Virus record (IMG/VR): IMGVR_UViG_3300012348_000137
Span: 1 to 54,675 of that record
Origin: a virus
Taxonomy: Duplodnaviria > Caudoviricetes
Length of the DNA: 54,675 bases
Reading direction: 5' to 3' (one strand)
Below the pieces are notes generated by a model. That model made no database searches. It saw nothing but the letters and a program-made list of their open reading frames with translations, and was not told where the DNA came from. A program made the translations under genes and the position numbers. This document shows positions 16,658-35,281 of this stretch, in pieces (within the stretch, counting starts at the first letter, position 1; the number at the start of each line of letters is the position of its first letter).

Positions 16658-16929
16658 TGGCTGAGCTCACAGGCGGCAGCGTCGACTACTACAAAGTGCA
16701 GGTGGCGCGGCCGACGTCTGGCGGCGAGCCATACATGGCAGAGTGCAACGACATCATCGAGGCACTGCGGATGGAGGCCGACGTGTCGAACGTCTTCAAG
16801 GCGGCGTGGCGCGTGGCCGCGCTGCGACAGGGCCGAGGCAAGCCGGGGCAGGAAAGCGCAGTCTACGACGGAGAGAAGATCGTGTTCTTCGGGCAGCGTA
16901 TTGTGGAGCGGGCGAAGGACGCGGGTTAG
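16657..16929 (+). CDS. DUF3310/SaV-like phage protein
   Basis: GGSVDYY...ECNDIIEAL...NVFKAAWR...K...YDGEKIVFF. Confidence 0.6.
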   Translation: MAELTGGSVDYYKVQVARPTSGGEPYMAECNDIIEALRMEADVSNVFKAAWRVAALRQGRGKPGQESAVYDGEKIVFFGQRIVERAKDAG

Positions 16930-18437
16930 CCTCCGTATTTCTTGGCCAACGCCGCGCTGTCTACCTTGCCGCCCTTCGCCAGAAGCGGGATGTCGCCCTT
17001 CAGATACATGTCGAGCACGCGCTCGGGGTCCATGCCGAGAGCGTCGGCGGTATACCGAACGCGCGCCTCGACCGTCTCCAGAAACGGCTCGGCCGCCGAG
17101 CCCAGACCGGTCTGTTCGCCGCCACCAAGCCACATAGAAGCCTGATACTGCGCCGGCGAGATGCCCATCTTTTTGGCCTGATCTTGCTGCCACGCCTCGT
17201 AGTAACCGTACTCGTTGTCCTTGGGCTTGGCGTCCCAAAACGCTGGGCGGTCGATCAGTTGGTCCAACGACATCTCGCCGCTCTTGAGCATCTCCTGCGG
17301 GCGGTACGGCGCGGCACCTTTTTCCGGCACGATAGACGTCGCGAGGAAGCGAGGATCTTGCGCCAAGATGCCCGGCAGGCGGAAATTGTGCGTGTCGATG
17401 GTGACGTTCCGCTGGTTGCCCTGCAAGTTGGTGGAGAACGACGCGGGCTTGGGGTTCTTGAACACGTCCCAGCCACCCATCCCCGCGACGTTTTGCACGT
17501 TCTGGGTGTGCAGTTTCTGGGCGACCGACCCGTAACCGGGTGCCGGCTTCTCGGGGATAGGCAAGCCCTTTGACAGCAGATAGTTGTAGTAGCTCGCGGT
17601 GCGGACGTTGTCCGGCACCCGCGCGCGCGGGCTCGTCGCGGCCACGATGTCCATGGCGCGTGCGTAGTTCGGGGCGACGTCTCCTGAAGGCATCAGAGAC
17701 CGCATCCGCTCCATCATGGGGTCGGTATTGTACCACTCGAGGCCGCCGCCCGCGATGCCGCGCTCGACGGTCTCGTTGATGCCTTTCTCGACTTCGGGGT
17801 TGGACAACGCTGACACAATGCGCTCCGACGGCCCGGGCGGCGGGTTGTAGCGAGGCATCTGGGTTTGGGGCACGTCCGGCACGGCGCTGAGATTGCTGTA
17901 ATCGAACAGCTTGCCACGCTCTGGGTTTTTGACACGGAACTCTGCGTAAGAGCCGCGCCCCTTCGAAGGCTTGGCGGCCTCGCGGAGCACGTCGGCCGCT
18001 GTGGCTTCAGGCGTGCCTGAGCGGGCAGACAGGATGGCAGGCGCTTCAGCAAGCAGCGCCTTCTCTGCCGTCTTGGCACCCTTCTTGACAGGCCCCGGCA
18101 GCGGCAACGCAGCCATGGCCAGTGTGGCCGCCGCCTCACCGCGCTTACCTTCTCGGGCAGAGAGAGCGGCCTCGTTGCCCATAAACGCAGCGCCGGCAGG
18201 GGTGAAGTCCATGACCTGCATCAGTCGCTCGGCGTTCTTGCGGCCGATGCGCACCGCCAGCTTATCCTTCAGCTGATCGCGCCACGACGCCTCGCGCCCC
18301 TCAATACGCCCTCGGCCGACCATGCCCGTCGGGTCGAGCAAGTCGGCGACATCGGCGCTGGGCGCGGTGTAGTCTGGCCGGCCACCGCGCTGCAGGCGCT
18401 GCGGCATCACGGCGAACGGGAAATCGGTGCTGCGCAT
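16926..18437 (-). CDS. putative ejected cargo protein with HhH-GPD glycosylase-like domain
   Basis: Last gene of the translationally coupled ejection operon; WY..AATSP..N..A..K..F..NL..VTIDTHNFR..QASMW. Confidence 0.65.
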   Translation of the reverse strand: MRSTDFPFAVMPQRLQRGGRPDYTAPSADVADLLDPTGMVGRGRIEGREASWRDQLKDKLAVRIGRKNAERLMQVMDFTPAGAAFMGNEAALSAREGKRGEAAATLAMAALPLPGPVKKGAKTAEKALLAEAPAILSARSGTPEATAADVLREAAKPSKGRGSYAEFRVKNPERGKLFDYSNLSAVPDVPQTQMPRYNPPPGPSERIVSALSNPEVEKGINETVERGIAGGGLEWYNTDPMMERMRSLMPSGDVAPNYARAMDIVAATSPRARVPDNVRTASYYNYLLSKGLPIPEKPAPGYGSVAQKLHTQNVQNVAGMGGWDVFKNPKPASFSTNLQGNQRNVTIDTHNFRLPGILAQDPRFLATSIVPEKGAAPYRPQEMLKSGEMSLDQLIDRPAFWDAKPKDNEYGYYEAWQQDQAKKMGISPAQYQASMWLGGGEQTGLGSAAEPFLETVEARVRYTADALGMDPERVLDMYLKGDIPLLAKGGKVDSAALAKKYGG

Positions 18438-20662
18438 TATTGGGGTATCCTCGGCATGGTGGAGAGGCCGTCGCGGATTGACGGGATTTCCAGCTCGAAG
18501 TCTTCTTCCTCCTCGCGCTCCGTCTCAGGCGACGGCGCGATGGTACGCGCACCGGCGGTGCCGGCCTGTGTGGCGCGACCCTCGAAGGCTCGCTCGCGCT
18601 TCGCACGTGCCGGGGCGGCGCGCTCCAGCTGCTGCAGCACAGCCTCCGCCTCCTGCGGCGTGGACGTGTTCAGCATCTTGGACAGCTGGCTGTAGGTCGA
18701 GCGCGACACGTTGGCGTTGCGCATGTCGCCGAGGATCTGCGCCGTGCGGCGGAACAGGTTGCCGGGCGTCGGATTGAGCATCATGTCGACAGCGGGCGAG
18801 ATCTCGCCGCCGGCGATGGCGTTTTCGACTGCCCGCGCCTCGGCACTGCGCTCGAACGTCTGGCTCCCGGTCATGACGCGACTGGATTGCTCGAACAGGT
18901 CGGCCTCGCGGCGCAATGACGCCTCCAGCACCTTGAACTCGTCCGGCGGCGTCAGGACGCGCAGCTTGTTGCGCAGGTTGTCGTTGTTGATAATCTCACG
19001 CGCGAAGTTGCGACGCTGCGAGCTGTCCTCAAAGCGCTGCATCAGGTTCTGCATGAAGCCCGTGGTGAGCGCGGCCTGCTCGCCGTCGGACGCCTCACGC
19101 GCCGTCTTGGCGACCTCTTGCCAGCGCAGCTTGTTGCCTGCGGCTTGGCGGCCGAGCTCCAGAGCGTCGCGGATCTCGATGTCGCCCTTGTACTGCGCGC
19201 GGGCAGCTTTGTATTCGGACGGCCCCACCTGATCGAGGCGGTTCACGAAGGCGTCTCGCACCTGCCGCAGGGCCGTGGCGTCGCCGCCCTGCCCGCTGGC
19301 GTACAGGCCGCTGATGCGACGGTCGAGCGCTTGCTTGATCTGATCGAGCGAACGCAGGTCGGGGATCTTCTTGCCCGTTGGGTCAATGCCGACGAGGGCG
19401 CCTTCAGCGTCGAGCCTCGGGGTGAACAGCTCCGACATGGCGTACTCAGCGGGGTCTTCACCTCGCAGTGCCGCCGCCTGCATTTCGCGCTGTGAGTTCC
19501 TCACGGCGTCCACGTAGGCTGCTTGGATGTCCGGCGAGTCGAGCGCCTTCATAATGCGCGGGTCGCGGATCTCCGGCGCGGCGGCGTACGCGGCCCTATA
19601 AAGCTGGTTGGCGTTCCGGCGCAGCGTGCCGGTGACCTGATCTATCGACGCGAAGTAGTCCGGCGTGGGCAGCGCAGTGCGCAACGCCTGCTGCGCCCGG
19701 CCCGGCGCGCCGGCCTGCTGCCGAGCGATGGTTTCGGCCAGCGCCTCGCGCCCTTCGGACGGGGCGCGCAGCACGACGTCAGCCAGTCGGCCAATCTCAG
19801 GCGTGGCAGTAGCCAGCGTCGTCGGCGCGCCGAGGGCTGCGTCGTCGGCCAGCTGCTGGCGAAGCGCGGCCGGGTCTTCCACGCGGCCTGCAAGGATGTC
19901 AGCGGCTGCGTCTTCTGCGTTCGCGCCCGTATCGGCCCGCGCGGCGCGCACGTCCCGAGCGAACTGCCCGGCACGCCCTGCACCGTACATGCCCGCGCCC
20001 AGCCCGGCACCGAGCGCGCCGCCGGCCAAGCCCATCGTGAAACGCTCTCCCGCGTTCTCGCCGGCACCGACGCCGGAGATGGCACCCTGCGCGGCACCGC
20101 TGGCGGCCGTGCGCGCCAGTGGCGACGCCAGCTTGCCGATGCCTGTAGCGGCACGCAAGGCCTGCCCGGCGACGCCCGCGCCGGGAATGAACATCGATCC
20201 AATGCCGCCGGCCATGTTCAGGCCCATGGCCGCAGCGGGCTGCTCTTGGCCAAAGCGGGCACGGCTCTGGCGGATCTCGCGCACGATCTCGTCGAAGCTC
20301 TTGTTCGAGAACGGCGCGCGTGCGGCCGCCTCGGCTTCGTCGGCGAACTCAAACATTGCGCCGCCAGCCAGCTCGCGTGCGCCGCCGGCAACAAGCTCGC
20401 CAGTGCTGAGCGGTTCCTGCGGTGCCGCGACATTAGGCGGCGCGCCCGGATCCGCAGGCGGCTCTGTGGCCTTTAGCATCGTGTCGAGGTCACGGTCGTC
20501 GAGCGTCTGCAGCTCGCTCTCCATGGCATCGTACTGCCCGAGGATGGCATCGAGCTCGTCGTCCGACAGCGCCTCGATCTCGGCCGGAGTGTTGATGGTG
20601 ACGCGCAGCGCACCCGTCTTCGGGTTGAACTGGTCACCGGGCGCGCGAGGATTGAGCGCCAT
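18437..20662 (-). CDS. internal virion/DNA ejection protein
   Basis: FEFADEAEA, Gly/Ala-rich membrane-like segment, long helical body; synteny after tail genes. Confidence 0.7.
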   Translation of the reverse strand: MALNPRAPGDQFNPKTGALRVTINTPAEIEALSDDELDAILGQYDAMESELQTLDDRDLDTMLKATEPPADPGAPPNVAAPQEPLSTGELVAGGARELAGGAMFEFADEAEAAARAPFSNKSFDEIVREIRQSRARFGQEQPAAAMGLNMAGGIGSMFIPGAGVAGQALRAATGIGKLASPLARTAASGAAQGAISGVGAGENAGERFTMGLAGGALGAGLGAGMYGAGRAGQFARDVRAARADTGANAEDAAADILAGRVEDPAALRQQLADDAALGAPTTLATATPEIGRLADVVLRAPSEGREALAETIARQQAGAPGRAQQALRTALPTPDYFASIDQVTGTLRRNANQLYRAAYAAAPEIRDPRIMKALDSPDIQAAYVDAVRNSQREMQAAALRGEDPAEYAMSELFTPRLDAEGALVGIDPTGKKIPDLRSLDQIKQALDRRISGLYASGQGGDATALRQVRDAFVNRLDQVGPSEYKAARAQYKGDIEIRDALELGRQAAGNKLRWQEVAKTAREASDGEQAALTTGFMQNLMQRFEDSSQRRNFAREIINNDNLRNKLRVLTPPDEFKVLEASLRREADLFEQSSRVMTGSQTFERSAEARAVENAIAGGEISPAVDMMLNPTPGNLFRRTAQILGDMRNANVSRSTYSQLSKMLNTSTPQEAEAVLQQLERAAPARAKRERAFEGRATQAGTAGARTIAPSPETEREEEEDFELEIPSIRDGLSTMPRIPQ

Positions 20663-21384
20663 TACTGTCCCCCTGCCTTCAGTGCGGCGCGGCGCTGCTT
20701 TTCGGCCATCAGCATGTCGCGGGAGTACGGCACAGGCTGAATGTTGGCGGTCTTCTGCGTGCGGTCGTAGCCGCGCTTGATGACGTCGAGATACGCCTGC
20801 ATATTCTTCTTGAACTGCTCCTCGCTGACCGACGTGTCGAGGTTGGCAAGCGCCTGCGTAGCGGCCTTGCCTTCTGCCTCAGTGATGGCGCCGGCGCCCT
20901 TGAGAGACTCAAACGCCTGCACAAAGGCTTGCGCCTTTGTGTTGTCGAGGCGGCTGGTGAAGTCGCGGGCACGTGAGCCGGGGAAGGTGCCGAGCGGCCC
21001 GAAGCCTCCCTTGAACGGGTTAGGCGCGCCGACAGTTGCCTCGAAGCCGGGGTGCTCAACAAGCTCGCGCCCGGCCGAGAACGCCATCTCGGCCTGATCG
21101 GCAAGCGTCGGCAGTTTGGTGCGTGCGGTCACAGCGGCGTTAGTCAGGGCCTCGCCTGACTTAAGCACGGACTGCTCGCGCAGCTTCTGCCCGATGTTCT
21201 TCGGCCCTTCCGGCAACGGCTTGGCCTCCTCGCGCTCCAAGCGGCGCCGTTCAAGGTCAAGGCGCTGGCGGTCTGCGTCCCTGCGGGCATACTCAGACTG
21301 AAGCTCAGATAGCGTCTTCTGCTCGCGCAGTGTGGGCTGAGCGGGGGCAGATCGTTTGTCGAAACGGTCGTAAGGGTTGTCCAT
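20662..21384 (-). CDS. internal virion/DNA ejection protein
   Basis: NPYDRFD start; AFESLKGAGAITEAEGKAAT motif typical of podovirus ejection proteins. Confidence 0.7.
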   Translation of the reverse strand: MDNPYDRFDKRSAPAQPTLREQKTLSELQSEYARRDADRQRLDLERRRLEREEAKPLPEGPKNIGQKLREQSVLKSGEALTNAAVTARTKLPTLADQAEMAFSAGRELVEHPGFEATVGAPNPFKGGFGPLGTFPGSRARDFTSRLDNTKAQAFVQAFESLKGAGAITEAEGKAATQALANLDTSVSEEQFKKNMQAYLDVIKRGYDRTQKTANIQPVPYSRDMLMAEKQRRAALKAGGQ

Positions 21385-22052
21385 TATCGCCCTCCGAGGT
21401 ACTGCGCCGATGCGCCCGCGCCGTATTTGGCATCGAAGGCGGCGGCGGTTTGGGGATTAGCTTTAAGATACGCCACCGCTTCTGCAGGCGCGCCCTGCGC
21501 AGGCGGCTCAACCACCGCGCCGGTGTCAAGGTCATAGATGCGGCCGTCCACCGGGCTGATTGCGGTGCGCCGGGCGGCCGGCTTGTTCAGACGCGCCTGC
21601 GCCGCCTTCGCCGCTTCCGTCCGACTGTAAGTCTGGCCGGCTTGGTCGGCAGCGGAGGTCAGCATGCGCAGCCGCTTGTCTTCGATGTCCATGCCGTACT
21701 TCTCGAGCAGCATCTGCTTCTCTTCTTCAGCGCTGCGCCTGCCCGAGGCCTGCTTCAAGAGCGCGCCTGACAGGTTGCCCATAGTCTCGCCGAAAGAGCC
21801 GGTGCGCGTGGGCTGCCCGAGGGCGGCGGCAATGGCGAGCAACTGTTCAGCATCAGAAGGACCCACGCGCTGCTGGCGGATACGGTTCCGCGCGGCGTTG
21901 AGCAGATCGAGGTTCTGCTGATTGCCCTGCGCGACGAGCGCCTGCGCCTGCTGCCAAGCCGCCAGACCATCCGGCGAGCCAGCAGAAGGCACAGCACCCA
22001 ATCCGCCCATGGCGGTATCGGCGTAGAGTTCGTCTTCGTCGTCTTCAAACAT
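21384..22052 (-). CDS. internal virion protein
   Basis: Helical; C-terminal AVAYLKANP....FDAKYG. Confidence 0.65.
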   Translation of the reverse strand: MFEDDEDELYADTAMGGLGAVPSAGSPDGLAAWQQAQALVAQGNQQNLDLLNAARNRIRQQRVGPSDAEQLLAIAAALGQPTRTGSFGETMGNLSGALLKQASGRRSAEEEKQMLLEKYGMDIEDKRLRMLTSAADQAGQTYSRTEAAKAAQARLNKPAARRTAISPVDGRIYDLDTGAVVEPPAQGAPAEAVAYLKANPQTAAAFDAKYGAGASAQYLGGR

Positions 22053-22058
22053 AGGACA

Positions 22059-25030
22059 TCACCCAAACAGGCCGAGCTTCTGGAGCGCCGCAATCGTCGC
22101 GGCCGTGCTGCCGGCGGTGGCCAGCGGCGACGGCTGCGAGCCGGGGAACTCGATGCCTTCTTTCGTCTTGGCAATCGGCACGCCCGGCGCGACGCCCTTG
22201 AAGGTCTCGAGCATAGCGTTGATCTGCTCTTGCGGGTAGCCCTGCTGCCGCAGGAAGTCTTCGCGAGCTGCGTCGAGGTTGCGCTGATCCAGAGTCTGCT
22301 GCTGCGTGCCAATCTGGTTGAGCGCTCCGGCACCGGTCAGTGCCGCCGTCTGGCGCTGGCTGGAGAGGCCGCCAAGCTGTTCGGCGGCACGAAGCTGCGC
22401 CGAGGTGTCTGCGCCGTACAGAGAGCCTGCGTCGCGGCCGAGGCTGGCGAGTAGCTGCTGCTGCGACGTCGTGAGAGCGCCCTGCGTCTGGCCCACGTCA
22501 GCGAGACCGCGACCGGCGTTGGCCAGCGCCTGCTGCTGACCCGCGCCAAGGCCTCCCGCCGCCTGACCGATGTCGGCCAGAGCGTTGCCCGCGCCGAGCT
22601 GCAGCTGCTGCTGGCCCGCGCCAAGCGCACCCAACGCCTGACCGGCGTCGCCCACCTGACGCGCCGCCGCAAGCTGAGCCTGCTGCTGCGACGTGCCAAG
22701 ACCGCCGGCGATCTGGCCGATGTCGGCGAGGCCGCGTCCGGACGTAGCCAGAGCCTGTTGCTGCGCCGTGCCGAGCTGACCCAGCGTGCCACCAATGTCG
22801 GCGATGCGCCCGGCCGCGCCGAGCTCTGCCTGCTGCTGCGCAGTGCCGAGGGCACCAGCAGCCTGACCGATGTCGGCAACGCCGCGCGCCGCATTGGCCA
22901 GAGCCTGTTGCTGGGCGGTCCCGAGCTGGCCGAGGGTGCCGCCAATGTCGGCGATACGGCCGGCCGCCGCGAGTTCTGCCTGCTGTTGCGCGGTACCGAG
23001 CTGACCAATCGCCTGCCCGACGTCCGCCGCGCCACGGCCAGCAGCGAGCTGAGCCGCCTGCTGCGCCGTCCCGAGCTGGCCGAGTGTCCCGCCGATGTCC
23101 GCGATGCGGCCGGCGGCGGCAAGTTCTGCCTGCTGCTGTGCGGTGCCCAGAGCGCCGCTGGCCTGACCAATGTCCGCCAGAGCGCGACCGGCACCAAGCT
23201 GGGCCTGCTGCTGTGCCGTGCCGAGACCACCAAGAGCCTGACCGATGTCGGCGATGCGGCTGGCGGCAGCGAGCTGGGCCTGTTGATCGGCGGTGCCCAG
23301 AGCACCACGAGCCTGCGCCACGTCGGCGAGGCCGCGACCGGCGGCAAGCTGGGCCTGCTGCTGCGCCGTGCCTAGGCCACCAAGGGCCTGACCGATGTCG
23401 GCGATGCGGCTGGCGGCAGCGAGCTGGGCCTGCTGCTGGGCACCGCCAAGGCTGCCTGCGGTCGACGCCAGCTGGGCACGGCGAGCGAGATCCGCCTGTG
23501 CCGCTTGCTGCGCCTGACCGAAGCCGGACTGGAGCGCCGCAGACTGCTGAGCAGAGATGCCTTCCATCGTGTCGCGAATAGCGCGGCCGGTAATTTCGGC
23601 CTGCCGGCTGCCGCCGAACTGGCCGGCGCGGATCATCTCCGCCTCGATGCCCGGCAGCAACTGCTCGCGCAGGCTGCGCGTGCCAAGCTGGCCGATGCGG
23701 TTGACCACAGCGTCCTGAAACGGGTTCATGTACTGGCTGAGCAGGTCAGACGAGCCGCGAGCGGCCTCACTGATCAGCGGCTGCGCCATCTGGAGGCCGA
23801 GGGCGTTGGTGCTCTGCTCGGCGAGGCCAGTGCCGCGCTGCATGAGCGACTCGGCGCGGCCGGCTGCAGCCGGATCGGCGCTGCCGGCGATGCTTTGAGC
23901 GGCCTGCTGCAGCATCGGGTCTGCAAGAGATAGGCCGCCCTGACCGGCGCTCTGCTCGGCGAGCGCAGCGCCGCGCTGCAGGAAGGGCTGGCCCATCTGC
24001 AGGCCGAGGGCTTGCGTGCTGGCGTTTACGTTCTCTGCGCCCTGCTGCATGAACGGCTGTGCCGCCTGCATGCCCAGCGCGTCGGTGCTCTTGGTGGCGA
24101 GGCCTGCACCCTGTTGCAGGAGCGGCTGTGCCGCCTGCATGCCGAGCGGGTTGGCGCTGCTGGTGATCTGATTGAGGCCCTGCTGCAGGATGGGTGAAGC
24201 GAGCGATAGGCCGCCCTGATCCACGCTGCCGGCAGCCATCTGCATGCCCTGCTGCAGCGCCGGCTGTGCCGCCTCCATGCCGAGCGCCTGCGTGCTCGCG
24301 CCAAACTGCTGCGCGCCCTGCTGGAAGAAGGGCGACGCCATCTGGATGCCCATCGGCGTCATGCTGCCGGCGGCGGTGGCCGCGCCCTGCGCGAGCAACG
24401 GCGTGCCCATCTGCAGACCGAGCGCTTGGCCGCTTTGCGCAAGCTGGTCCGCGCCCTGCGCCAAGAACGGCGATGCCATCTGCATGGCGAGTGGATCAGT
24501 GCTCCCCGCCGCCATCTGCGCGCCCTGCTGGATTAGCGGCGAGCCCATCTGGATGGCGAGGGGACCGGCTGCTGCGCCAATCTGCTGAGTGCCCGCGTCA
24601 AAGTACGGCTGCGCGGCCTGCATGGCGAGCGGAGACGTGCTCGCGTTGAACATGTTCGTAGCGTTCTGCAGGTTGCCTGCAGCGGCACCCGTCGGCGACA
24701 TGCTGGCGGCGGCACCAAAGTACGGCTGAGCCGCGCCAAGTGACGAGCGGTTCAGCGTGCCCTGCGTGGCGGCCGACGCCGCGTTGAGCTCGGGCTGAAA
24801 CGAGAAAGCACCTTGGCGCGTAGCCTCAAATGCGGCCTGCTGATCAGGCGTGAACTCTGCAATAGGAGGGCTTGGGGCCGTCGTGTACGGGCGCTGCGCC
24901 AAGGCCTGCTGGCCGGCGAGCATGTCCATGGCGTAGTTGCTGTACCACTCGGGCAGGATCGTCTGCTCGGTGGTCGAGACGGGAACGCCCTGCACGGGTT
25001 TCCCCTCTGTCAGGAAATCCAAAACGCCCA

Positions 25031-25031
<1 letters not shown>
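22059..25031 (-). CDS. pilot/ejection protein with two tandem-repeat arms
   Basis: LPEWY, TPDQQAAF, YMNPF, GQFGGSR core; Q/A/G-rich repeats. Confidence 0.75.
22464..23438 (-). repeat. 13 x 75-bp (25-aa) coding tandem repeat
   Basis: Unit QQQAQLAAAxRIADIGQxLGxLGTA, with largely alternating A/B variants. Confidence 0.9.
23745..24641 (-). repeat. 13 x 69-bp (23-aa) coding tandem repeat
   Basis: Unit STxALGMQMAQPhLQQGAxxxAx. Confidence 0.9.
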
Positions 25032-27864
<2,833 letters not shown>

Positions 27865-27865
<1 letters not shown>

Positions 27866-28098
27866 TATCCGGGCCCTTCTAGCATCGGGTAGACGCGCAT
27901 CGCCCACTCGCGCCAATCATCAAATTGATATGGGTCCGGTATAACGCGCTGCGTAAAATCGGACGCGCGAACAAATCCTACGGCCCAGTTTTGCCAGTCG
28001 TCCTCGCTCGTCAGCGTGCCGAACGACCATGCGTCACCAACGGACAGTATAACCGAATCTGCCCAGTCTCGTAAAGACATGCCGCGCGGGTCGATCAT
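27865..28098 (-). CDS. small Trp-rich virion-module protein
   Basis: Coupled on both sides; PDPYQFDDWREWA. Confidence 0.7.
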
Positions 28099-29714
28099 CC
28101 GATTACCGTGCCGTCGCCGGGCTGTACGTGCGCCAGCACCAAGCCCATCTGGTAGTCGCCACCGATGGCGTTGCTCTCAAAACGGAAGCGCAGCTCGCGG
28201 CGCTGCGTCTTGAAGTACACAACCTGATCCTGCGGCGTAGGCGGCGTCTCGTAAATTGTCTTGACCTCGCTGGAGATCTCCGGGGCTTTGGCGTTGGCGC
28301 GCCCCGTAACCTGCATGGTCATGTCTCCGCTCTGCACAAAATCTGGTTCGATCATAAGCACTTGCAGGGCTTTGTTCTCTTGGCTCATCACCGGCAGCGA
28401 CATGTCGGCCGTCTCGAAATAGCTGCGCACGGGCTGGATGTTCAGGCCGTCGATCTCGTCCGCGCCGACCTCATGAATCCACAGCTTGTACAGCAGATCC
28501 TCGCTGTCCTCCGTGGCGCGCACGTTGCCATCCTCAGTGATGCGCGTGTCGCTCGCCTCGGTGACGCGGATCTCCTCGGGCCCGACGGTTGGCGTCACGC
28601 CGGTCATCAGCGGCTTCGGGAAGACGGTCGGCGACACGGCGGCGCTGCGGCCTTCGTTGGGCAGCTCGCAGTCGTACCACGTGTTCTCGCGGATGTTGTA
28701 GATGATGGCGTGCGACGGCTCCGTTGCCTCGCCACGCGGATAGCACCACCAGATCTCGCCATAGCGCGGCACCTTCATCGCGAACACCTTCTGGCGATAC
28801 TGCTGGTTCAGCCCGTCGAAGAAGTAGTTCAGGTTCAGGTTGTTAGGCACCTCGCGCACCACGCCGTTGAACGACAGGAAGCGGTCGGTGCCGATCCAGT
28901 AGAAGATGCCGTCATACTCGATGACCGTGTTGGCCCCGAGGATGGACGACTGGGTGCTGATGGTGTCGAACTGGAACAGCGCGTTGCCGCCGACAAACGA
29001 CGTGCGCACGATGGCGTCAGCGGACCAGAACAGGCCCGACGGCGCGTTACCCGGACCGCCACGCAAAGGCATGGCGCGCACGATCTTCTGGCCGGTGATG
29101 TTGGCCGAGCCGGACCCGAGGCTGGTGTAATCCGTAGGGTCGCCGGCGACAGACCACGCCACGTAGCCGTCGTTGCCGAAGATGAACGTGAACGGGTGCA
29201 GCACCACGACGCCGCCCGTCAGGCTGTAGCCCGTGGGCAGGTTCGTCACCTCCTGCAGCGGCGCGGTGCCAAGCAGGTCGCCGTAGAACAGCTGGCCGCC
29301 GTCGTTGTTGCAAATGCAGTCGAGGTTCGGCGCGACTTGCGCCACGATCTGATTGCCGCCCAGACCGGCTGCAGCCACCACGTCGAACTGCCACATGTTC
29401 AGCGGATCGACGGCGAGCGAGATCGGCGTCCTGTTAGTGATGATCGACGTGTTGAAGCTGTTGTCGATGTAGAAGCGCTCGACAAAGTTGGCAGAACCGC
29501 TGTGAATGTAGGTCAGGCTGTTCTGCGTGTACTCGTGCAGAGCCCGCCCCGGCTCGCGCAGGTATTTGCTGATCGAGCGGTAGCCACCCATCTTGCGCGG
29601 CAGTCCGCGCTGAAAGCGCACCCACTGCCCGTCGACATAGTTGTCGCCCTCAAAGCGCGTGCCGTCGCGCTTGATGCCCGGCTCTGAGCGTATCGGGACG
29701 ACGCGCTCGGCCAT
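28095..29714 (-). CDS. tail tube/nozzle protein (P22 gp10/T7 gp12-like)
   Basis: PGIKRDGT..DGQWVRF..K.GGY; EIWWCYP..IYN..ENTWY; beta-rich; TAATG start at 29714. Confidence 0.7.
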   Translation of the reverse strand: MAERVVPIRSEPGIKRDGTRFEGDNYVDGQWVRFQRGLPRKMGGYRSISKYLREPGRALHEYTQNSLTYIHSGSANFVERFYIDNSFNTSIITNRTPISLAVDPLNMWQFDVVAAAGLGGNQIVAQVAPNLDCICNNDGGQLFYGDLLGTAPLQEVTNLPTGYSLTGGVVVLHPFTFIFGNDGYVAWSVAGDPTDYTSLGSGSANITGQKIVRAMPLRGGPGNAPSGLFWSADAIVRTSFVGGNALFQFDTISTQSSILGANTVIEYDGIFYWIGTDRFLSFNGVVREVPNNLNLNYFFDGLNQQYRQKVFAMKVPRYGEIWWCYPRGEATEPSHAIIYNIRENTWYDCELPNEGRSAAVSPTVFPKPLMTGVTPTVGPEEIRVTEASDTRITEDGNVRATEDSEDLLYKLWIHEVGADEIDGLNIQPVRSYFETADMSLPVMSQENKALQVLMIEPDFVQSGDMTMQVTGRANAKAPEISSEVKTIYETPPTPQDQVVYFKTQRRELRFRFESNAIGGDYQMGLVLAHVQPGDGTVIG

Positions 29715-30922
29715 TAGAACGTGCCGCCGTTCACGTTGCCAGACTGGGCCGGCCCCAGCGTCGACCACACCGTCGCGGCGTTGGGGGCGGTGAAGATGGC
29801 CGTGCCGACGGCCGTGCCGCCCAGATTGATCAAGGCAGAGCCGGCCGACGTGGCACCGGTGCCGCCGTCGGAAACGGACACGGGAACGGCGATGCCGCCA
29901 GTCTCGGCGTCAACCACGCTGTTGCCGTCGCAGTACAGGATGGCTCGAGCGCCGCGAGCGACGTTGATGCCCGGCGACTGGGTGTTGGTCTTGACGCGCA
30001 GGGTGAACGTGCCGCCCGTCGTGTTGTTGTAGACCCAATACTGCTGCGTCGTCTTAGGCACGACGATCTCGATGTTGCCAGTGATCGTGCCTGTGAACTG
30101 GTAGGCGATGCGGTTCAGCTCCGCGCCCGTTAGGGTGTAGTCGCCGCTCAGGCCGCCGACGTTGACCGACGTGTAGTCGAAGGCGAACACGGCGCTCTGG
30201 CCGAGACCCAGCGTGTACCACGACACGCCGTCCGTCACGACGGTCGCGCTGTCACCCGGCGAGAGCGTCAGGTTCAGGTCGCTGTTGATTGTGTCGAGGC
30301 CCTGCGGCGTGACAACGAGGTTGCCAGTGCCCTCGTTGCGCACGGCCACGAACCAGTTGTCGCCGGCGTCGGAGGCCGGCGGCAAGGTGAAGGTGCCGAG
30401 GCCGCCAGTCCACACGTACATGCGGGCGCGGTCGGGGGCGGCCGATATGTAGTTGGCGTTGAAGAGCGTCACAGGCGAGGATTGCGACAGCGTCGATCCG
30501 GTGGCGGTCAGACCGAAGCCGGCGAGCGCCGAGGCCTGCGCCTGCGCGGTGGAGGCACCGTAGCGGAACGTGCGCCACACGCCGGCCGCCGTGCTGTTGT
30601 CGGTCAGGTAGATCTGCCACTGCTCGCCCTGCGCAATGGACAAGAGCGTGGCACCGACGCTGTTCTTGACGGTGACGGTGGACGGGCCGAGGTTGTTGAA
30701 CAGGATCGTCTGGCCGGTGCCGGTCTCGTCGGCGGGCGGCATGACGATGTCGTACGCGCCGGTCGGCGTGATGTCGATGATGCGCGCGGCCGGCTTGGTC
30801 GTGTCGCTGCTCTCCATCGGCCACTCGAGCGTGATGTTCGCCGTGAGCGCCAGAGGCAGGTAGGACACGTCCGACGGGTAGATGGTGTTGCCACCAAAGA
30901 CTTGCGTATAGCTGTTGGTCAC
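29714..30922 (-). CDS. virion structural/tail protein
   Basis: Beta-rich S/T/G composition; DGGTGATSA fibre motif; ends in GGTF. Confidence 0.65.
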   Translation of the reverse strand: MTNSYTQVFGGNTIYPSDVSYLPLALTANITLEWPMESSDTTKPAARIIDITPTGAYDIVMPPADETGTGQTILFNNLGPSTVTVKNSVGATLLSIAQGEQWQIYLTDNSTAAGVWRTFRYGASTAQAQASALAGFGLTATGSTLSQSSPVTLFNANYISAAPDRARMYVWTGGLGTFTLPPASDAGDNWFVAVRNEGTGNLVVTPQGLDTINSDLNLTLSPGDSATVVTDGVSWYTLGLGQSAVFAFDYTSVNVGGLSGDYTLTGAELNRIAYQFTGTITGNIEIVVPKTTQQYWVYNNTTGGTFTLRVKTNTQSPGINVARGARAILYCDGNSVVDAETGGIAVPVSVSDGGTGATSAGSALINLGGTAVGTAIFTAPNAATVWSTLGPAQSGNVNGGTF

Positions 30923-31576
30923 TTATGCCTCCTTGCGCACGGACGAGCGGTCGAGAACCTTGGCCAAGTCCTCGCCGTTCAGCATGGCAGCGGCACGGTC
31001 GTACATGCCCTGCCAGACGGGCATGCGCTCGTCGTTCTTCAGGAACGGGGTCGCCTCCAGCAGCGTGCCGTACAGCAGCAGCTGTGGGGCGTATTCGGTC
31101 AGCCAGTTGGTCTGGATGGTGTCATCGAGCAGCGGCGGCAGTTCGTAATACAGGATCTCGAACGGATAGTCCGCGTCTGGCGTCGGCGCGATCAGCCAGT
31201 GCGTGTAGTCGTAGTCCGAGTAGAAGATGGGCTGTTCGGTCTGCGTCCGGTCGGGCCAGTAGCTGAGCAGGTACTCGTACGCGCGCGTGAACAGCACCTT
31301 GCGCGTGTTGCTCTGGTTGCCGGTGCCGATGTTGATCGACACGGTGTCGCGCCAGCGGTCGGGCTTGGGATAGACCGAAACGCCACTCTGTAGCGTGCCG
31401 GTGACGACGTTGATGAAGCCTTGGATCTTGAGCTCGCGCGCGATGCGGCGCTCGGCCAGATTGATCAGGCGGGGAATCTGCTCGAATACGACGGGGTCAG
31501 CCGCATACGACGTCCCGCGCTCGAGGTAGCGCCGCACGTCCTGCTGGAGCGTCGTGAAGGTCATCGTCGTGGCCAT
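30923..31576 (-). CDS. head-tail adaptor protein
   Basis: FTTLQQDVRRYLER..IP..INLAERRI; APTPD..Y; NWL..AP.LLLYGTL.EA. Confidence 0.75.
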   Translation of the reverse strand: MATTMTFTTLQQDVRRYLERGTSYAADPVVFEQIPRLINLAERRIARELKIQGFINVVTGTLQSGVSVYPKPDRWRDTVSINIGTGNQSNTRKVLFTRAYEYLLSYWPDRTQTEQPIFYSDYDYTHWLIAPTPDADYPFEILYYELPPLLDDTIQTNWLTEYAPQLLLYGTLLEATPFLKNDERMPVWQGMYDRAAAMLNGEDLAKVLDRSSVRKEA

Positions 31577-32301: not shown

Positions 32302-34839
32302 TTACCACGTCGCAATCGCCACGCGTTTCCACGTGTTGGTCGCAGTGCAGATGTAGATGTAGTTGGCGTCGGCACGGATTTCTCCGGCTTGTCCAGAGGC
32401 TGATGCGCTGGCAGGGGCAGTTGTTGGAATGTTCAACCTAGTCCCAAAAGAACCGGTCGTGAACAAGCCGCTCGTCGCAAATATAAATGAAGTGCTTAAT
32501 CCTGAAGAGGAGGCACTAAACGACGTGCTGCCACCCACGACAAATACCATGTCGCTATTGCTGGTGCGGTAATAAAGTCCAGTGGTAGGGTAGTTGGTGA
32601 AATATAGGGATGGGCTTCCACCGGGGCCGGTGTCACTCAGCCCAAACGTGCCGCCCAGCGCCTGCGACACCCACGCGGTGCCGTTCGAGGTAAGGACGTT
32701 GCCCGACGTGCCCGGCGATGTGAGGCCGGTGCCGCCGTTGGCCGGCGACAGCGCAGTCCCCGACCAATTGGAGTTGTTAATGCTGCTGAGCGTCGCAAGC
32801 GTGCCCAGCCCGAGGTTGGTGCGCGCGCCGGCGGCCGTCGTGCTGCCAGTGCCGCCGTTGGCGATAGCGAGCGTCCCAGAGAGCGTCAGCGTCCCGGTCG
32901 AGGTGACAGGGCCGCCGCCGAATGTGAGACCGGTCGTCCCGCCGCTCGCGTTGACGGACGTGACGGTGCCGCTCACCGTGCTGGTCACGGTGAACGTCGG
33001 ATATGTGCCGCTGACCGCGATGCCCGTGCCGGCGAGGAGCGTGACGGTCTGATCCGGCGCACTGTTGGTGACGGTGACCGACCCTGCGCCGTTTGTGATT
33101 GAGATCCCGGTGCCCGCCGTCAGGTTAGCGGAGGTGTACCCGGTGCCGTTGCCAATGAGTAGGCGCCCGTTGGTGGGTGTCGTGGTGACGCCCGTCCCGC
33201 CATTGGCGACGCCCAGCGTGCCGGACAGCGTTAGCGTGCCGCTCGAGGTGATCGGTGAGCCGGTGAACGACAGGCCAGTCGTACCACCGCTGGCGGCCAC
33301 AGAGGTGACGGTGCCCGACGCGGCTGAGATCCACTCGACGTCGGTGCTGCCGCTGTTGACGGCGAGGACGCGGCCGTTGTTGCCGGTGTAGCTGGGCAGC
33401 AGGCTTGTGCGCGCGCCAGAGGCGGTCGCAGCGCCTGTACCGCCATTGGCCACCGCCAGCGTGCCGCTGAGCGTCAGCGTGCCGCTTGTGGTGATTGGCG
33501 ATCCGCTAAAGGTCAGGCCGGTCGTGCCACCCGACGCGGCAACGCTCGTGACGGTGCCGCCACTGGCAGTCGAAGCGACGGTGAAGTTCGGGTATGTGCC
33601 GGTGACGGTGATGCCGCTGCCGGCCGTGAGCGACACGGTCTGATCCGGGGCGGTGTTGGCGATGGTGATGGTGCCACTGCCGTTCGTGACAGAGACGCCC
33701 GTGCTCGCAGTGAGCCCGGCGAGGGCGTAGCCGCTGCCGTTGCCAATCAGCAGCTGCCCGTTGGTGGGCGTGGCCGTCAGGCCGGTGCCGCCGTTGGCCG
33801 GGATCAGCGTGCCAGCCAATGTGATCGTGCCGGACGAAGTGACCGGGCCGCCCGTTGCCGTCAGGCCGGTTGTGCCGCCGCTAACGTCGACCGAGATGAC
33901 GGTGCCCGTGCCGGTGCCCACGCCGATGGCGGTGCGGAAGTCGGCCGCATTGAGCGCGCTCACGCTGTTGTCCGCATTGATGCGCGGGAAGGTGATGGCG
34001 CTGGGGTTGGCGAGGGTGAAGAAACCGTCGCCGACCGTCGTGGATCCAAGGCTGGTGCGGGCACCGGACGCCGTTGTGGAGCCAGTGCCGCCGCGCGCCA
34101 CGGTGAGCGTGCCGGTCGTGCCGGCCACAATCGGCAGGCCGGTGGCGTTGGTGAGCGTGGCGGCCGATGGCGTGCCGAGATCCGGGGTGACCAGCGCCGG
34201 GCTGGTGGACAGGACGACGCTGCCCGTGCCGGTCGAGGTGGTCACGCCGGTGCCACCGTTCGCCACGGCGAGCGTGCCGGTGAGCGTCAGGGTGCCGCTC
34301 GAGGTGATGGGGCTGCCGGTGAAGGAGAGGCCGGTCGTGCCGCCAGAGGCAGCAACGGACGTAACGGAGCCGCCGCCTGTGCCAGCGCCGATGGCTGTGC
34401 GGAATGTGGCGGCGTCCAGCGCGCTGACCGTGTTGTCCGCATTGAAGCGCGGGAAGGTGACGGCGCTCGGGTTGGTGAGCGTGAACAGGTTGGCGCCGAT
34501 CGTGGTCGCGCCGAGGTTGGTGCGGGCCACGCTGGCGGACGTTGCGCCCGTGCCACCATTGGCGACAGCCAGCGTACCGGACAGCGTGAGGGTGCCGCTC
34601 GAGGTCACCGGGCCGCCGGTGAAGGACAGGCCGGTTGTGCCGCCGGACGCGTTGACGGACGTCACGGTGCCGTTGGCGCGGTCGATGGACACGACGGCGC
34701 CCGAGGCGTTCTTGAAGTAGAGCTTCTCGTCGGCGGTGTTGAGCGCCAGTTCGCCGTCTGCCAGATTGCCAGCAGTGGGCGCCACGCCGGGCGACGCGCT
34801 GCGGTAGTGCTGGATCGGCGTGAAACCGGTCTGAGCCAT
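32302..34839 (-). CDS. tail fibre with GTVTSV/ANGGTG repeats
   Basis: N-terminal GELALNTADEKLYFK; five GTVTSV/GSVTSV-type and one GTVISV repeat; C-terminal YIYICTATNTWKR. Confidence 0.85.
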   Translation of the reverse strand: MAQTGFTPIQHYRSASPGVAPTAGNLADGELALNTADEKLYFKNASGAVVSIDRANGTVTSVNASGGTTGLSFTGGPVTSSGTLTLSGTLAVANGGTGATSASVARTNLGATTIGANLFTLTNPSAVTFPRFNADNTVSALDAATFRTAIGAGTGGGSVTSVAASGGTTGLSFTGSPITSSGTLTLTGTLAVANGGTGVTTSTGTGSVVLSTSPALVTPDLGTPSAATLTNATGLPIVAGTTGTLTVARGGTGSTTASGARTSLGSTTVGDGFFTLANPSAITFPRINADNSVSALNAADFRTAIGVGTGTGTVISVDVSGGTTGLTATGGPVTSSGTITLAGTLIPANGGTGLTATPTNGQLLIGNGSGYALAGLTASTGVSVTNGSGTITIANTAPDQTVSLTAGSGITVTGTYPNFTVASTASGGTVTSVAASGGTTGLTFSGSPITTSGTLTLSGTLAVANGGTGAATASGARTSLLPSYTGNNGRVLAVNSGSTDVEWISAASGTVTSVAASGGTTGLSFTGSPITSSGTLTLSGTLGVANGGTGVTTTPTNGRLLIGNGTGYTSANLTAGTGISITNGAGSVTVTNSAPDQTVTLLAGTGIAVSGTYPTFTVTSTVSGTVTSVNASGGTTGLTFGGGPVTSTGTLTLSGTLAIANGGTGSTTAAGARTNLGLGTLATLSSINNSNWSGTALSPANGGTGLTSPGTSGNVLTSNGTAWVSQALGGTFGLSDTGPGGSPSLYFTNYPTTGLYYRTSNSDMVFVVGGSTSFSASSSGLSTSFIFATSGLFTTGSFGTRLNIPTTAPASASASGQAGEIRADANYIYICTATNTWKRVAIATW

Positions 34840-34909: not shown

Positions 34910-35281
34910 TCACGGCTGCTCGGGCCACTGCACGAACGTCGGGAAGGTGGGCTGCTCGGTGATGTCGCGCAGGGCTTGGCGGTACGCCGCCCACGCGTCG
35001 CGGTCGACGGGGGCGTCGGCTACCTGTGTCCAGTCGCAGGCCGCGAGGCGCGCGTTGCGATCTTCACGGATCGACGCGGCAAGCCCGTCCATGTCAGGGC
35101 CAGCCATGAAGGGCGGCGGCTCTGCGGCGCGCGGATGCCACACGCCGGCCACCCACTCGTGCGGGCCATCGCCGGGAGGCGGCGTGTACGTCCAGTTTGG
35201 CCCGACGCCCTTGCGCGGGTCGATCTGCTTGGACTGGCCGATATGGCCGTTGGGCTTGATTTCATAGACTGTAATCATCAT
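34910..35281 (-). CDS. tail fibre assembly chaperone
   Basis: R..RNARLAACDWTQ..DAP..WAAYRQALRDIT.Q..FP..VQWP; ATGA-coupled to the fibre gene. Confidence 0.85.
   Translation of the reverse strand: MMITVYEIKPNGHIGQSKQIDPRKGVGPNWTYTPPPGDGPHEWVAGVWHPRAAEPPPFMAGPDMDGLAASIREDRNARLAACDWTQVADAPVDRDAWAAYRQALRDITEQPTFPTFVQWPEQP

Follow-up and report, generated by a model that had tools for sequence, protein, structure and literature searches.

Why would a phage protein carry two unrelated tandem repeats in equal number, one on each side of a non-repetitive core? The question is raised by a protein of 990 amino acids (aa), here P0001, encoded in the IMG/VR virus record IMGVR_UViG_3300012348_000137 (Duplodnaviria; Caudoviricetes). 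What we call the window is the whole of this viral record, 54,675 bases long, with an estimated completeness of 97% and a G+C content of 64.5%. A tRNA scan gave no tRNA genes in the window, and 20 kb of it gave no megablast match to cultured phages. The 990-aa protein itself matches no family in Pfam and PHROG scans. A preliminary description had pointed to positions 22464-24641 and seen there a pilot protein whose equally numerous repeats suggested two arms that pair unit for unit. These positions correspond to aa 131-856 of a minus-strand open reading frame (ORF) with an ATG start, a plus-strand reading being ruled out by stops in the frame. The coding sequence (22059..25031, minus strand, stop codon included) was taken from the ORF list and its translation, and its N-terminus, MGVLDFLTEGKP, is the same as in homologues. 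We favour the explanation that the protein forms a fold-back modular stalk and belongs to the ejection block of the virion, and we give this explanation as a whole a probability of about 0.7.

Repeat arms and their lengths across homologues

Conserved segments and repeats alternate along the chain, all parts of which are encoded on the minus strand. The N-terminal conserved domain (aa 1-90; 24762..25031), one putative half of a 'base', is spanned by an N-anchor hidden Markov model (HMM) at aa 3-90, and in an AlphaFold2 (AF2) model has a predicted local distance difference test score (pLDDT) of ~78-93 at aa 21-100. The N arm (aa 91-430, 340 aa; 23742..24761) comprises one short 16-aa unit, one degenerate unit and 13 clear 23-aa units (aa 132-430, 23742-24638). 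It was delimited by register, anchors, shuffle scores (z 13.5-16.4) and an exact fit to the length rule given below. Next comes the conserved core (aa 431-528, the span of the core HMM; 23448..23741), the putative 'tip' of a hairpin, which carries YMNPF at aa 434 and GQFGGSR at aa 470 and in which Y434, M435, P437, R452, P460, G470 and R486 are invariant or nearly so. The C arm (aa 529-886, 358 aa; 22374..23447), delimited by register, anchors, shuffle scores (z 20.7-26.6) and a 150-nt period in the DNA, holds 13 clear 25-aa units (aa 532-856, 22464-23438), which are followed by a short unit of 18 aa and by degenerate sequence. The C-terminal conserved domain with its tail (aa 887-990; 22062..22373), the other putative half of the base, is spanned by a C-anchor HMM at aa 887-954, with an AF2 pLDDT of ~85-94 at aa 860-950.

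Repeat significance was measured as self-identity at unit lags against 2000 shuffles, none of which equalled any observed value. The 13 in-register N-arm units (consensus tdpLGmQmAqPlLQQGAqqaagS) have a self-identity of 0.366 at lag 23 (0.115 shuffled, z 13.5) and 0.435 at lag 46 (z 16.4), and the 13 C-arm units (consensus QQQAQLAAARriADIGQAlGaLGTA) reach 0.583 at lag 25 (0.163 shuffled, z 20.7) and 0.742 at lag 50 (z 26.6). Cutting in register and shuffling thus confirmed the 13 x 23 aa and 13 x 25 aa repeats described around the YMNPF..GQFGGSR core, and also brought out a two-unit super-period in both arms (46 aa in N, 50 aa in C) that is absent from the preliminary description. The two unit types had been called unrelated, which is borne out by their local alignment score (z 0.03). 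The degenerate units noted at the outer edges are likewise present, and the length rule gives 15 units per arm (1 short and 14 long). In the DNA, Tandem Repeats Finder sees the C arm as 5.2 copies of a 150-nt period and the N arm as 2.9 copies of a 69-nt period. Both arms are rich in Q, A and G, with few charges. C-arm units 5, 7 and 9 are 82-85% alike in DNA and identical or 96% alike in protein.

The family is large, with 1603 cluster representatives at E<=0.001 in an exhaustive HMMER search. We compared 308 proteins, consisting of the window protein, its homologue in Caulobacter phage RW, the yield of two word-index searches and the best 150 of the 1603 representatives. Three HMM anchors (N domain, core and C domain), all present in 292 of the 308, served to delimit the arms and so to measure them; of the 16 unscored proteins, some are fragments and the others long forms whose C domain has diverged (P0028, P0030, P0285). 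Across the 292 homologues, the lengths of the N and C arms are correlated with a Pearson r of 0.992, a Spearman coefficient of 0.985 and a slope of 1.07. The N minus C difference has a median of 6 and an interquartile range of 4-8, although the arms span 2-358 aa. A single protein, P0146 on a contig of 1350 nt, is more than 25 aa off (N arm 2, C arm 76). In a second set of 74 loci, made up of the window, RW and those 72 of 80 fetched IMG/VR loci that have all three anchors, r is 0.999.

This covariation is not explained by relatedness, because sister proteins change both arms together. In a tree built from anchor columns only, the N arm differs by at least 8 aa in 48 of 91 sister pairs, and in 47 of these 48 the C arm shifts the same way by at least 8 aa; where the N arms are similar (43 pairs), two pairs have differing C arms. 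The N and C differences between sisters are correlated with r 0.998 and a slope of 1.09. The correlation of standardised phylogenetically independent contrasts is only 0.43, and since branch lengths close to zero govern this value, sister pairs and raw contrasts were preferred. Mismatched sister pairs are off by exactly one unit: P0123/P0101 (16 vs 0) and P0121/P0119 (0 vs 18). Equal arm length across homologues, a trait of antiparallel coiled-coil hairpin stalks, is thus found with near-perfect correlation in both sets and in the sister pairs. Judged by comparison of homologous sequences, equal counts are a rule of the family and the two arms change in lockstep. The unmatched natural forms (P0123/P0101, P0121/P0119 and P0146) may be intermediates, tolerated mismatches or assembly errors.

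The lengths also follow a code. The best repeat periods of the two arms come in pairs, N16-C18, N22/23-C25, N32-C36, N39-C43, N46-C50 (the window protein) and N55/59-C61, and we therefore recognise two basic layers, a short one of 16 N-arm and 18 C-arm residues and a long one of 23 N-arm (22 in some clades) and 25 C-arm residues. In each, the C unit has two residues more than the N unit. For s short and l long layers and an optional single heptad, the rule N = 2+16s+23l, C = -10+18s+25l is exact in 198 of the 292 proteins and holds within 2 aa in 255, against 13% of random pairs; in the 74 loci it is exact in 50 and holds within 2 aa in 68. For the window protein the fit is exact at s=1 and l=14, a total of 15 layers, and this protein has the longest arms measured in both sets. 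Two longer proteins, P0030 (1115 aa) and P0285 (1083 aa), have no recognisable C anchor, so that their arms are unmeasurable.

Direction of pairing and fold of the chain

Changes mirrored about the turn are expected of a hairpin stalk, and they are found here both in the positions of insertions and deletions (indels) and in the order of units. For 20 sister pairs in which each arm carries just one indel block (a further 27 with more blocks were set aside), the distances of the blocks from the core are correlated between N and C arms at r 0.89 in mirror and 0.18 in parallel orientation. Taken as fractions of arm length, the positions give a mirror r of 0.62 (p 0.004) and a parallel r of -0.62. 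Parsed by hand, P0050 has the unit order N 16,16,23 and C 25,18,18, and P0009 has N 16,23,16,23,16,16,23 and C 25,18,18,25,18,25,(18). The automated unit parser is imperfect, with many ambiguous spacings. In its strict form 73 of 263 proteins came out without ambiguous spacings, 10 of them with equal counts, and all 4 informative patterns among the latter were mirrored. A wildcard comparison was then used, in which a core-anchored mirror order gives agreement for 105 of 115 units and a perfect match for 20 of 23 mixed patterns, as against 71 of 101 and 78 of 107 units, and 7 of 23 and 11 of 22 patterns, under two parallel anchorings. The mixed patterns that do not fit the mirror in the automated parse are P0009, P0013 and P0167, of which P0009 fits when parsed by hand.

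Fold models point the same way. An AF2 model of P0046, a relative of 417 aa (125 aligned sequences; mean pLDDT 78.7, predicted template modelling score 0.40), is all-helical apart from two short strands. Its C side is predicted as a single helix of 176 residues (205-380), and its N arm as three helices of 13, 19 and 13 residues with three-residue breaks between them. The only two beta strands, at 21-25 and 384-388, must pair with each other, so the termini would meet. In the AF2 model of the window protein the only strands are E21-25 and E954-958, which match this pair. The N-side and C-side helices are predicted to pack antiparallel. The best structural matches are antiparallel hairpins, namely PrgA (Z 10.3), the chemoreceptor 2ch7 (Z 10.0), a Tsr fusion (Z 9.2) and cohesin/Smc arms (Z 8.7-9.2), all below the Z of ~13 under which, by the tool's own warning, scores are common for long helical proteins. 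Foldseek gave no match against PDB at E<=0.001. A profile search of PDB sequences returned only a chance match to Cas7 (E 0.39). Covariation, mirrored indels, mirrored unit order and fold models together support the earlier proposal that the arms pair unit for unit and antiparallel, and we regard an antiparallel fold-back hairpin as very probable.

In the mechanism that we propose, the gene would encode a virion protein from the ejection-protein gene block of a short-tailed phage of ~55 kb. The comparison and the models suggest that the chain folds back, the N- and C-terminal domains joining as a base and the YMNPF...GQFGGSR core becoming the far tip. The N arm, with short helices broken at prolines, would pack antiparallel on the C arm, a long and nearly continuous coiled-coil helix. 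Each layer of the stalk would consist of one N unit and one C unit, with 16+18 aa in a short and 23+25 aa in a long layer, and the window protein would have a stalk of 15 layers; its 358-aa C arm, if fully helical, would be ~54 nm long at 1.5 Å per residue. Gain or loss of a unit in one arm would be viable only with a counterpart change in the other, and equal counts would follow from this. Modelling suggests that copies probably associate side by side as a bundle or tube. After ejection, the length of the stalk would set the distance from tip to base and with it the reach of this part of the DNA-delivery apparatus.

That antiparallel coiled-coil hairpins tolerate only symmetric length changes is a principle known from chemoreceptors and SMC-type arms. 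For the cytoplasmic hairpin of chemoreceptors (methyl-accepting chemotaxis proteins, MCP), symmetric insertions and deletions of heptads in both arms were reportedly described by Alexander and Zhulin in 2007. The phage protein resembles this hairpin in its probable form as a long antiparallel helical hairpin and in its matched indels (2ch7, Z 10.0, 301 residues aligned). It differs in its units, which are 16/18 and 23/25 aa and not 7/7, and in its N arm, where each unit is shorter by two residues and prolines interrupt the helices; the length range of the phage family is also far larger and its turnover far faster. The likeness is one of fold only, as Pfam gave no match to the MCP signalling domain PF00015 for P0001 or 7 relatives. 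SMC, Rad50 and MukB share with the phage protein, whose arm has roughly 300-350 residues per strand, a head of N and C termini, a long antiparallel two-helix arm and a distal domain (7ogt Z 9.2, 5xg2 Z 8.7, 7zr1 Z 7.7). Unlike them, the phage protein is without an ATPase head and without sequence kinship, and its arms come from recent tandem repeats. New, in our reading, are the setting, a family of podovirus virion proteins that is both large and uncharacterised, the code of two units in which 'N = C minus 2', the length span of 0 to ~358 aa per arm and the speed of turnover. Full-text searches on ejection proteins with repeats or coiled coils, limited to main texts, gave no description of matched repeat arms, and a review of ejection proteins gave none either.

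Proposed ejection role and stalk length

Ejection proteins of short-tailed phages are among the least understood parts of the virion; they are mostly invisible in reconstructions, and the form that they assume in the envelope is known for few phages. Short-armed relatives of the window protein match phrog_4287 ('DNA ejection protein') over their full length, with E 4e-11 to 3e-14. Examples are P0156 (E 3.8e-11, 19-300 of 331 aa) and an ORF of locus L063 (E 3.1e-14), and RW gp065c matches with E 1.6e-9. The link of the window protein to PHROG 4287 would run through its homology to such members, with the arms interrupting the match. P0327, a relative of 1263 aa, has the hairpin module fused to a GH108 lysozyme domain (aa 569-642, E 1.7e-13), and one fused relative is named 'peptidoglycan binding-like'. 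The order of genes is conserved, and runs adaptor, variable fibre-like gene, nozzle, 77-aa gene, large Gly/Ala-rich hydrophobic protein, hairpin gene and further large genes.

A more remote link leads to the Bruynoghevirus protein Pa222_053. The family profile (alignment A3) aligns with it by hhalign over 159 columns, from core to C domain, with a probability of 70.7% and E 3.8e-5, and the alignment pairs YMNPY with YLGPY and AGQFGGSR with AGQYGSSR. The gene for Pa222_053 (313 aa) is followed by a gap able to hold a small gene and then by genes of 504 and 1055 aa, and by size and gene position it is the presumed equivalent of Pa223 gp56. According to a preprint on Pa223 (10.1101/2025.06.11.659172), gp56 was detected in virions by mass spectrometry, was not seen in the cryo-electron microscopy (cryo-EM) map and is proposed as a T7-gp14-like outer-membrane channel of the ejection machinery; five membrane helices are predicted in it, and AlphaFold3 predicted a hollow channel only for a nonamer. 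Apart from the profile match, our family shares with gp56/Pa222_053 a gene position after the nozzle among large internal-protein genes, an all-helical fold and a composition rich in Q, A and G. It is unlike the Bruynoghevirus protein in that the latter has 313 aa with no repeat arms seen, its N-terminal 100 residues stay unaligned and the sequence kinship is weak. From the PHROG label, the gene order and this remote match to Pa222_053, we put the odds of an ejection-protein role somewhat above even.

Sequence alone here reveals an architecture of base, fold-back stalk and tip, an exact modular rule of length, and matched changes in length that arose independently dozens of times. For structural virology, the family offers ready natural variants in length with which to ask what determines how far a DNA conduit reaches, and for protein engineering a repeat system in which two different units co-define one antiparallel coiled-coil layer. 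It could further be seen as a natural length series, from no stalk to one of ~54 nm, in which a mirrored two-letter layer code quickly retunes the reach of the ejected assembly through the envelope; we think this on balance unlikely. Were it true, the length of a trans-envelope conduit would be readable from sequence, and the window phage would hold the longest version seen.

Several observations weigh against the explanation that we favour. Concerning the fold, the AF2 model of the window protein (149-row alignment) has a mean pLDDT of 63, with 30-45 in the N arm, and is of no use for unit contacts. The structural match scores (Z up to 10.3; Foldseek E 0.017 or worse) lie within the common range for long helical proteins, and the residue contacts that the models report are between copies. 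Concerning the repeats, a mirrored pattern of similarity between the 13 N and 13 C units of the window protein failed to appear (mirror r -0.02 to -0.12), and the unit-similarity matrices within this protein show weak agreement in parallel order (r 0.27-0.34, permutation p 0.03-0.06). In DNA, likeness between units reaches 90% in the C arm (units 1 and 3) and 73% at most in the N arm, a higher C-arm likeness that simple simultaneous co-duplication does not predict. Because the matrices are unmirrored and the C units more alike than the N units, the duplication history was not simply one of paired units copied together. Any unit of either arm may have been copied, or the C array may have been homogenised; the two arms may also have expanded at different times. 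Concerning the role, the window protein itself has no match to phrog_4287 at E<=0.001, and the gp56 link is a single profile match of moderate probability in which the equivalence of Pa222_053 is deduced. Several fused relatives carry a fibre-type auto-processing chaperone domain. Concerning length, the variation of the arms from 0 to ~358 aa without a matching change in neighbour lengths or G+C fits poorly with a precise ruler. By our own estimate of capsid size, a straight stalk of ~54 nm plus the constant parts is also long for the inside of a capsid that holds a 55-kb genome.

A tuned ruler function is doubtful, and a serious alternative is that the arms are a pure spacer. They would have to match in order to fold, their length being untuned; slippage would change the number of units, and selection would remove the unmatched forms. 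This account, which we consider somewhat unlikely, agrees with the span of 0-358 aa among phages that have the same conserved tail module, the complete-sized contigs among those listed being ~55-57 kb whatever the arm length. Arm length is uncorrelated with contig G+C (rho 0.10), used as a stand-in for host clade, and with how long the upstream neighbour is (rho 0.07). Against the nozzle and the 77-aa gene rho is 0.26 and -0.36. No length-matched partner gene was found among these three. More than half of the sister pairs (48 of 91) differ in length, so turnover is fast, and the forms mismatched by one unit (P0123/P0101, P0121/P0119 and P0146) exist as such an account would have it. It explains less well why some length classes are over-represented, such as 1 short plus 2 long, the make-up of 82 among the 255 proteins lying within 2 aa of the rule, although sampling bias could be the cause, and why long arms occur in contigs of G+C 0.35-0.65. 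Repeated selection is hinted at by the latter, since long arms arose in contigs of very different G+C.

The arms might also pair between chains, in a domain-swapped head-to-tail oligomer, and not within one chain. Three copies of a relative of 331 aa, modelled with a second predictor (alignment A3, 43 rows used), gave an interaction prediction score from aligned errors (ipSAE) of 0.66 against 0.00 for the best of three controls; in calibration, made with two copies and the tool's own alignments, 20 of 30 solved pairs scored at or above the ipSAE mark, as did 1 of 23 single chains. The trimer runs agree in at least 89% of contacts, with a partner pLDDT of at least 74. The model supports, without establishing, self-association of family members. 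In the contacts listed, residues i at 57-97 in one copy meet residues j at 259-213 in another, and i+j is ~316-317, which corresponds to antiparallel packing of N side and C side. That the only reported contacts lie between copies speaks for pairing between chains, whereas the monomer models place the only two strands, N- and C-terminal, together. The mirrored indels fit both arrangements, and these are not exclusive, as the C helix in a bundle could touch its own and its neighbour's N arm. We regard pairing between chains to the exclusion of fold-back as unlikely.

The preliminary description had gone further and proposed a podovirus 'tape measure': its co-expanded length would fix how far the ejected tube reaches, so as to match the host envelope in thickness. 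We consider this quite unlikely. The ejection context and the remote link to the presumed gp56 equivalent, a proposed channel, would suit it, as would the self-association predicted by modelling (ipSAE 0.66, control 0.00) and the modular mirrored stalk, with arms rich in Q, A and G and poor in charges. However, the modelled support comes from three copies. The only cultured close relatives, phages of the Caulobacter RW group, have almost the shortest arms (26/15 aa), and a stalk of ~54 nm is about twice the usual width of the Gram-negative periplasm. Classical tape measures set the length of a tail tube with which they are assembled, and no tail tube gene turned up in PHROG scans, which covered 34 of 66 candidate ORFs. 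The protein is like tail tape measure proteins in being a helical virion protein with repeats, in that its length could determine a dimension and in that tandem duplications alter this length. It is unlike them in that they form a single extended helix bundle in a matching tail tube, as opposed to a probable fold-back hairpin in a short-tailed phage. The H protein of phiX174, reported to form a DNA-pilot tube (said to be the work of Sun et al. in 2014), is also a helical Gln-rich coiled-coil pilot with 7- and 11-residue periods, and the C units here can be written as 18 = 7+11 and 25 = 7+7+11. Unlike our protein, it forms a parallel ten-helix tube of single helices in a tailless single-stranded DNA phage.

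An external fibre or whisker, with the hairpin coiled coil as shaft and the conserved core or base docked on the tail, is the least probable of the alternatives. It would account for structure-library relatives fused to an 'intramolecular chaperone auto-processing' domain typical of tail fibres or spikes (ranks 3, 7, 10 and 25), for the annotation of a distant homologue in Ochrobactrum phage vB_OspP_OH as 'tail fiber domain-containing protein' and of one in Planktothrix phage Pag-Yong1 as 'peptidase S74 domain-containing protein', and for a rod of at least 50 nm, which fits the outside of a particle more easily than its inside. It is nevertheless very unlikely. Conservation peaks at the two ends of the protein, which is not what receptor-binding tips show, and fibre-like proteins (845 and 1446 aa), together with a variable gene of 402 aa by the adaptor, are already present in the window. 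The PHROG label, the gp56 link (a protein present in virions and invisible on their surface in cryo-EM) and the fusions to GH108 and peptidoglycan-binding domains point to action in the periplasm.

Neighbouring genes and divergent relatives

The short-tail module of the window consists of an adaptor and a nozzle, and the genes described here are all on the minus strand. The head-to-tail adaptor (217 aa; 30923..31576) matches Pfam SU10_adaptor (E 9e-30) and the adaptor in PDB 7z47 (E 8e-7). The nozzle or tail-hub protein (557 aa; 28095..29768) matches phrog_3287, a chain of PDB 9nwi labelled 'Capsid and scaffold protein' (E 1e-14) and 8zkk 'nozzle gp16' (E 3e-10). Among 73 related loci, a nozzle homologue is found in 64 and an adaptor homologue in 57. 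The fibre-like gene that adjoins the adaptor encodes 402 aa in the window and 352 to 1376 aa among relatives. Upstream of the adaptor lie an 845-aa protein with tail-fibre PHROG matches (32302-34839) and a 1446-aa protein with DUF6242 (35278-39618), which are probably receptor-binding fibres or spikes.

The upstream neighbour of the hairpin gene (961 aa; 25031..27916) is a probable ejection or internal protein, and its homologues, of 200 to 961 aa, precede the hairpin gene in 70 of 73 related loci. It has a hydrophobic Gly/Ala-rich stretch at ~aa 230-390, a Pro-rich region, a duplicated PLLETTLNDI[IV]RQYE segment and a run of 9 Gly. At its C-terminus, the motif 'SDGEYVIDAETV' gives weak tape-measure PHROG matches (aa 869-919). 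Downstream of the hairpin gene, a run of four genes (222, 240, 741 and 503 aa; 16926..22052) probably encodes further internal or ejection proteins; the 240-aa protein matches phrog_2534 (E 3e-21), the 741-aa protein phrog_5880 and the 503-aa protein DUF7178. The match of the 240-aa protein (20662-21384) to phrog_2534 ('released from the phage upon host infection') lies at 234-408 of the profile, and P22 gp20 matches 1-247 of the same profile, so that the two have a common PHROG and different parts of it.

Candidate assignments that were tried and rejected include the P22 gp7 family PF25688, with no match in the window at E<=10 and an hhalign probability of 0.5% for alignment A2 against P22 gp7. 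The only hint of gp7 was an Atlas cluster (score 0.89) in which 13% of the members carry PF25688. The P22 gp20 family (PHROG 917/2534) gave an hhalign probability of 0.2% for A2 against P22 gp20, Pa222_052, the gp54 equivalent, had no relation by hhalign, and P0001 had no tape-measure match in PHROG or Pfam.

Cultured relatives are few, namely four phages of the Caulobacter RW group and more distant ones in cyanophages, an Ochrobactrum phage and a roseophage; of the homologues found in cultured phages, none has a functional annotation. Some short-armed members carry 350-700 extra residues (L063:7151-9913, L056:9145-12243, L049:9977-12613, L017:6873-8960 and L070:9977-12127), mostly at the C-terminus, and at the N-terminus in L017/L018; these additions gave no Pfam match. 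Scans of the C-terminal extensions of fused relatives gave no Pfam family in 11 of 12 (one had DUF3106) and in 10 of 11. In L063 the extension occupies the place of a separate downstream gene in its close relative L047, which suggests a gene fusion. Gp17 of Vibrio phage VPp1 (L084:15029-15658), a 209-aa 'particle protein', matches the core only (HMM E 7.8e-7 in a three-locus search; hhalign probability 30%) and may, by this sequence match, be a minimal relative that has neither base nor arms.

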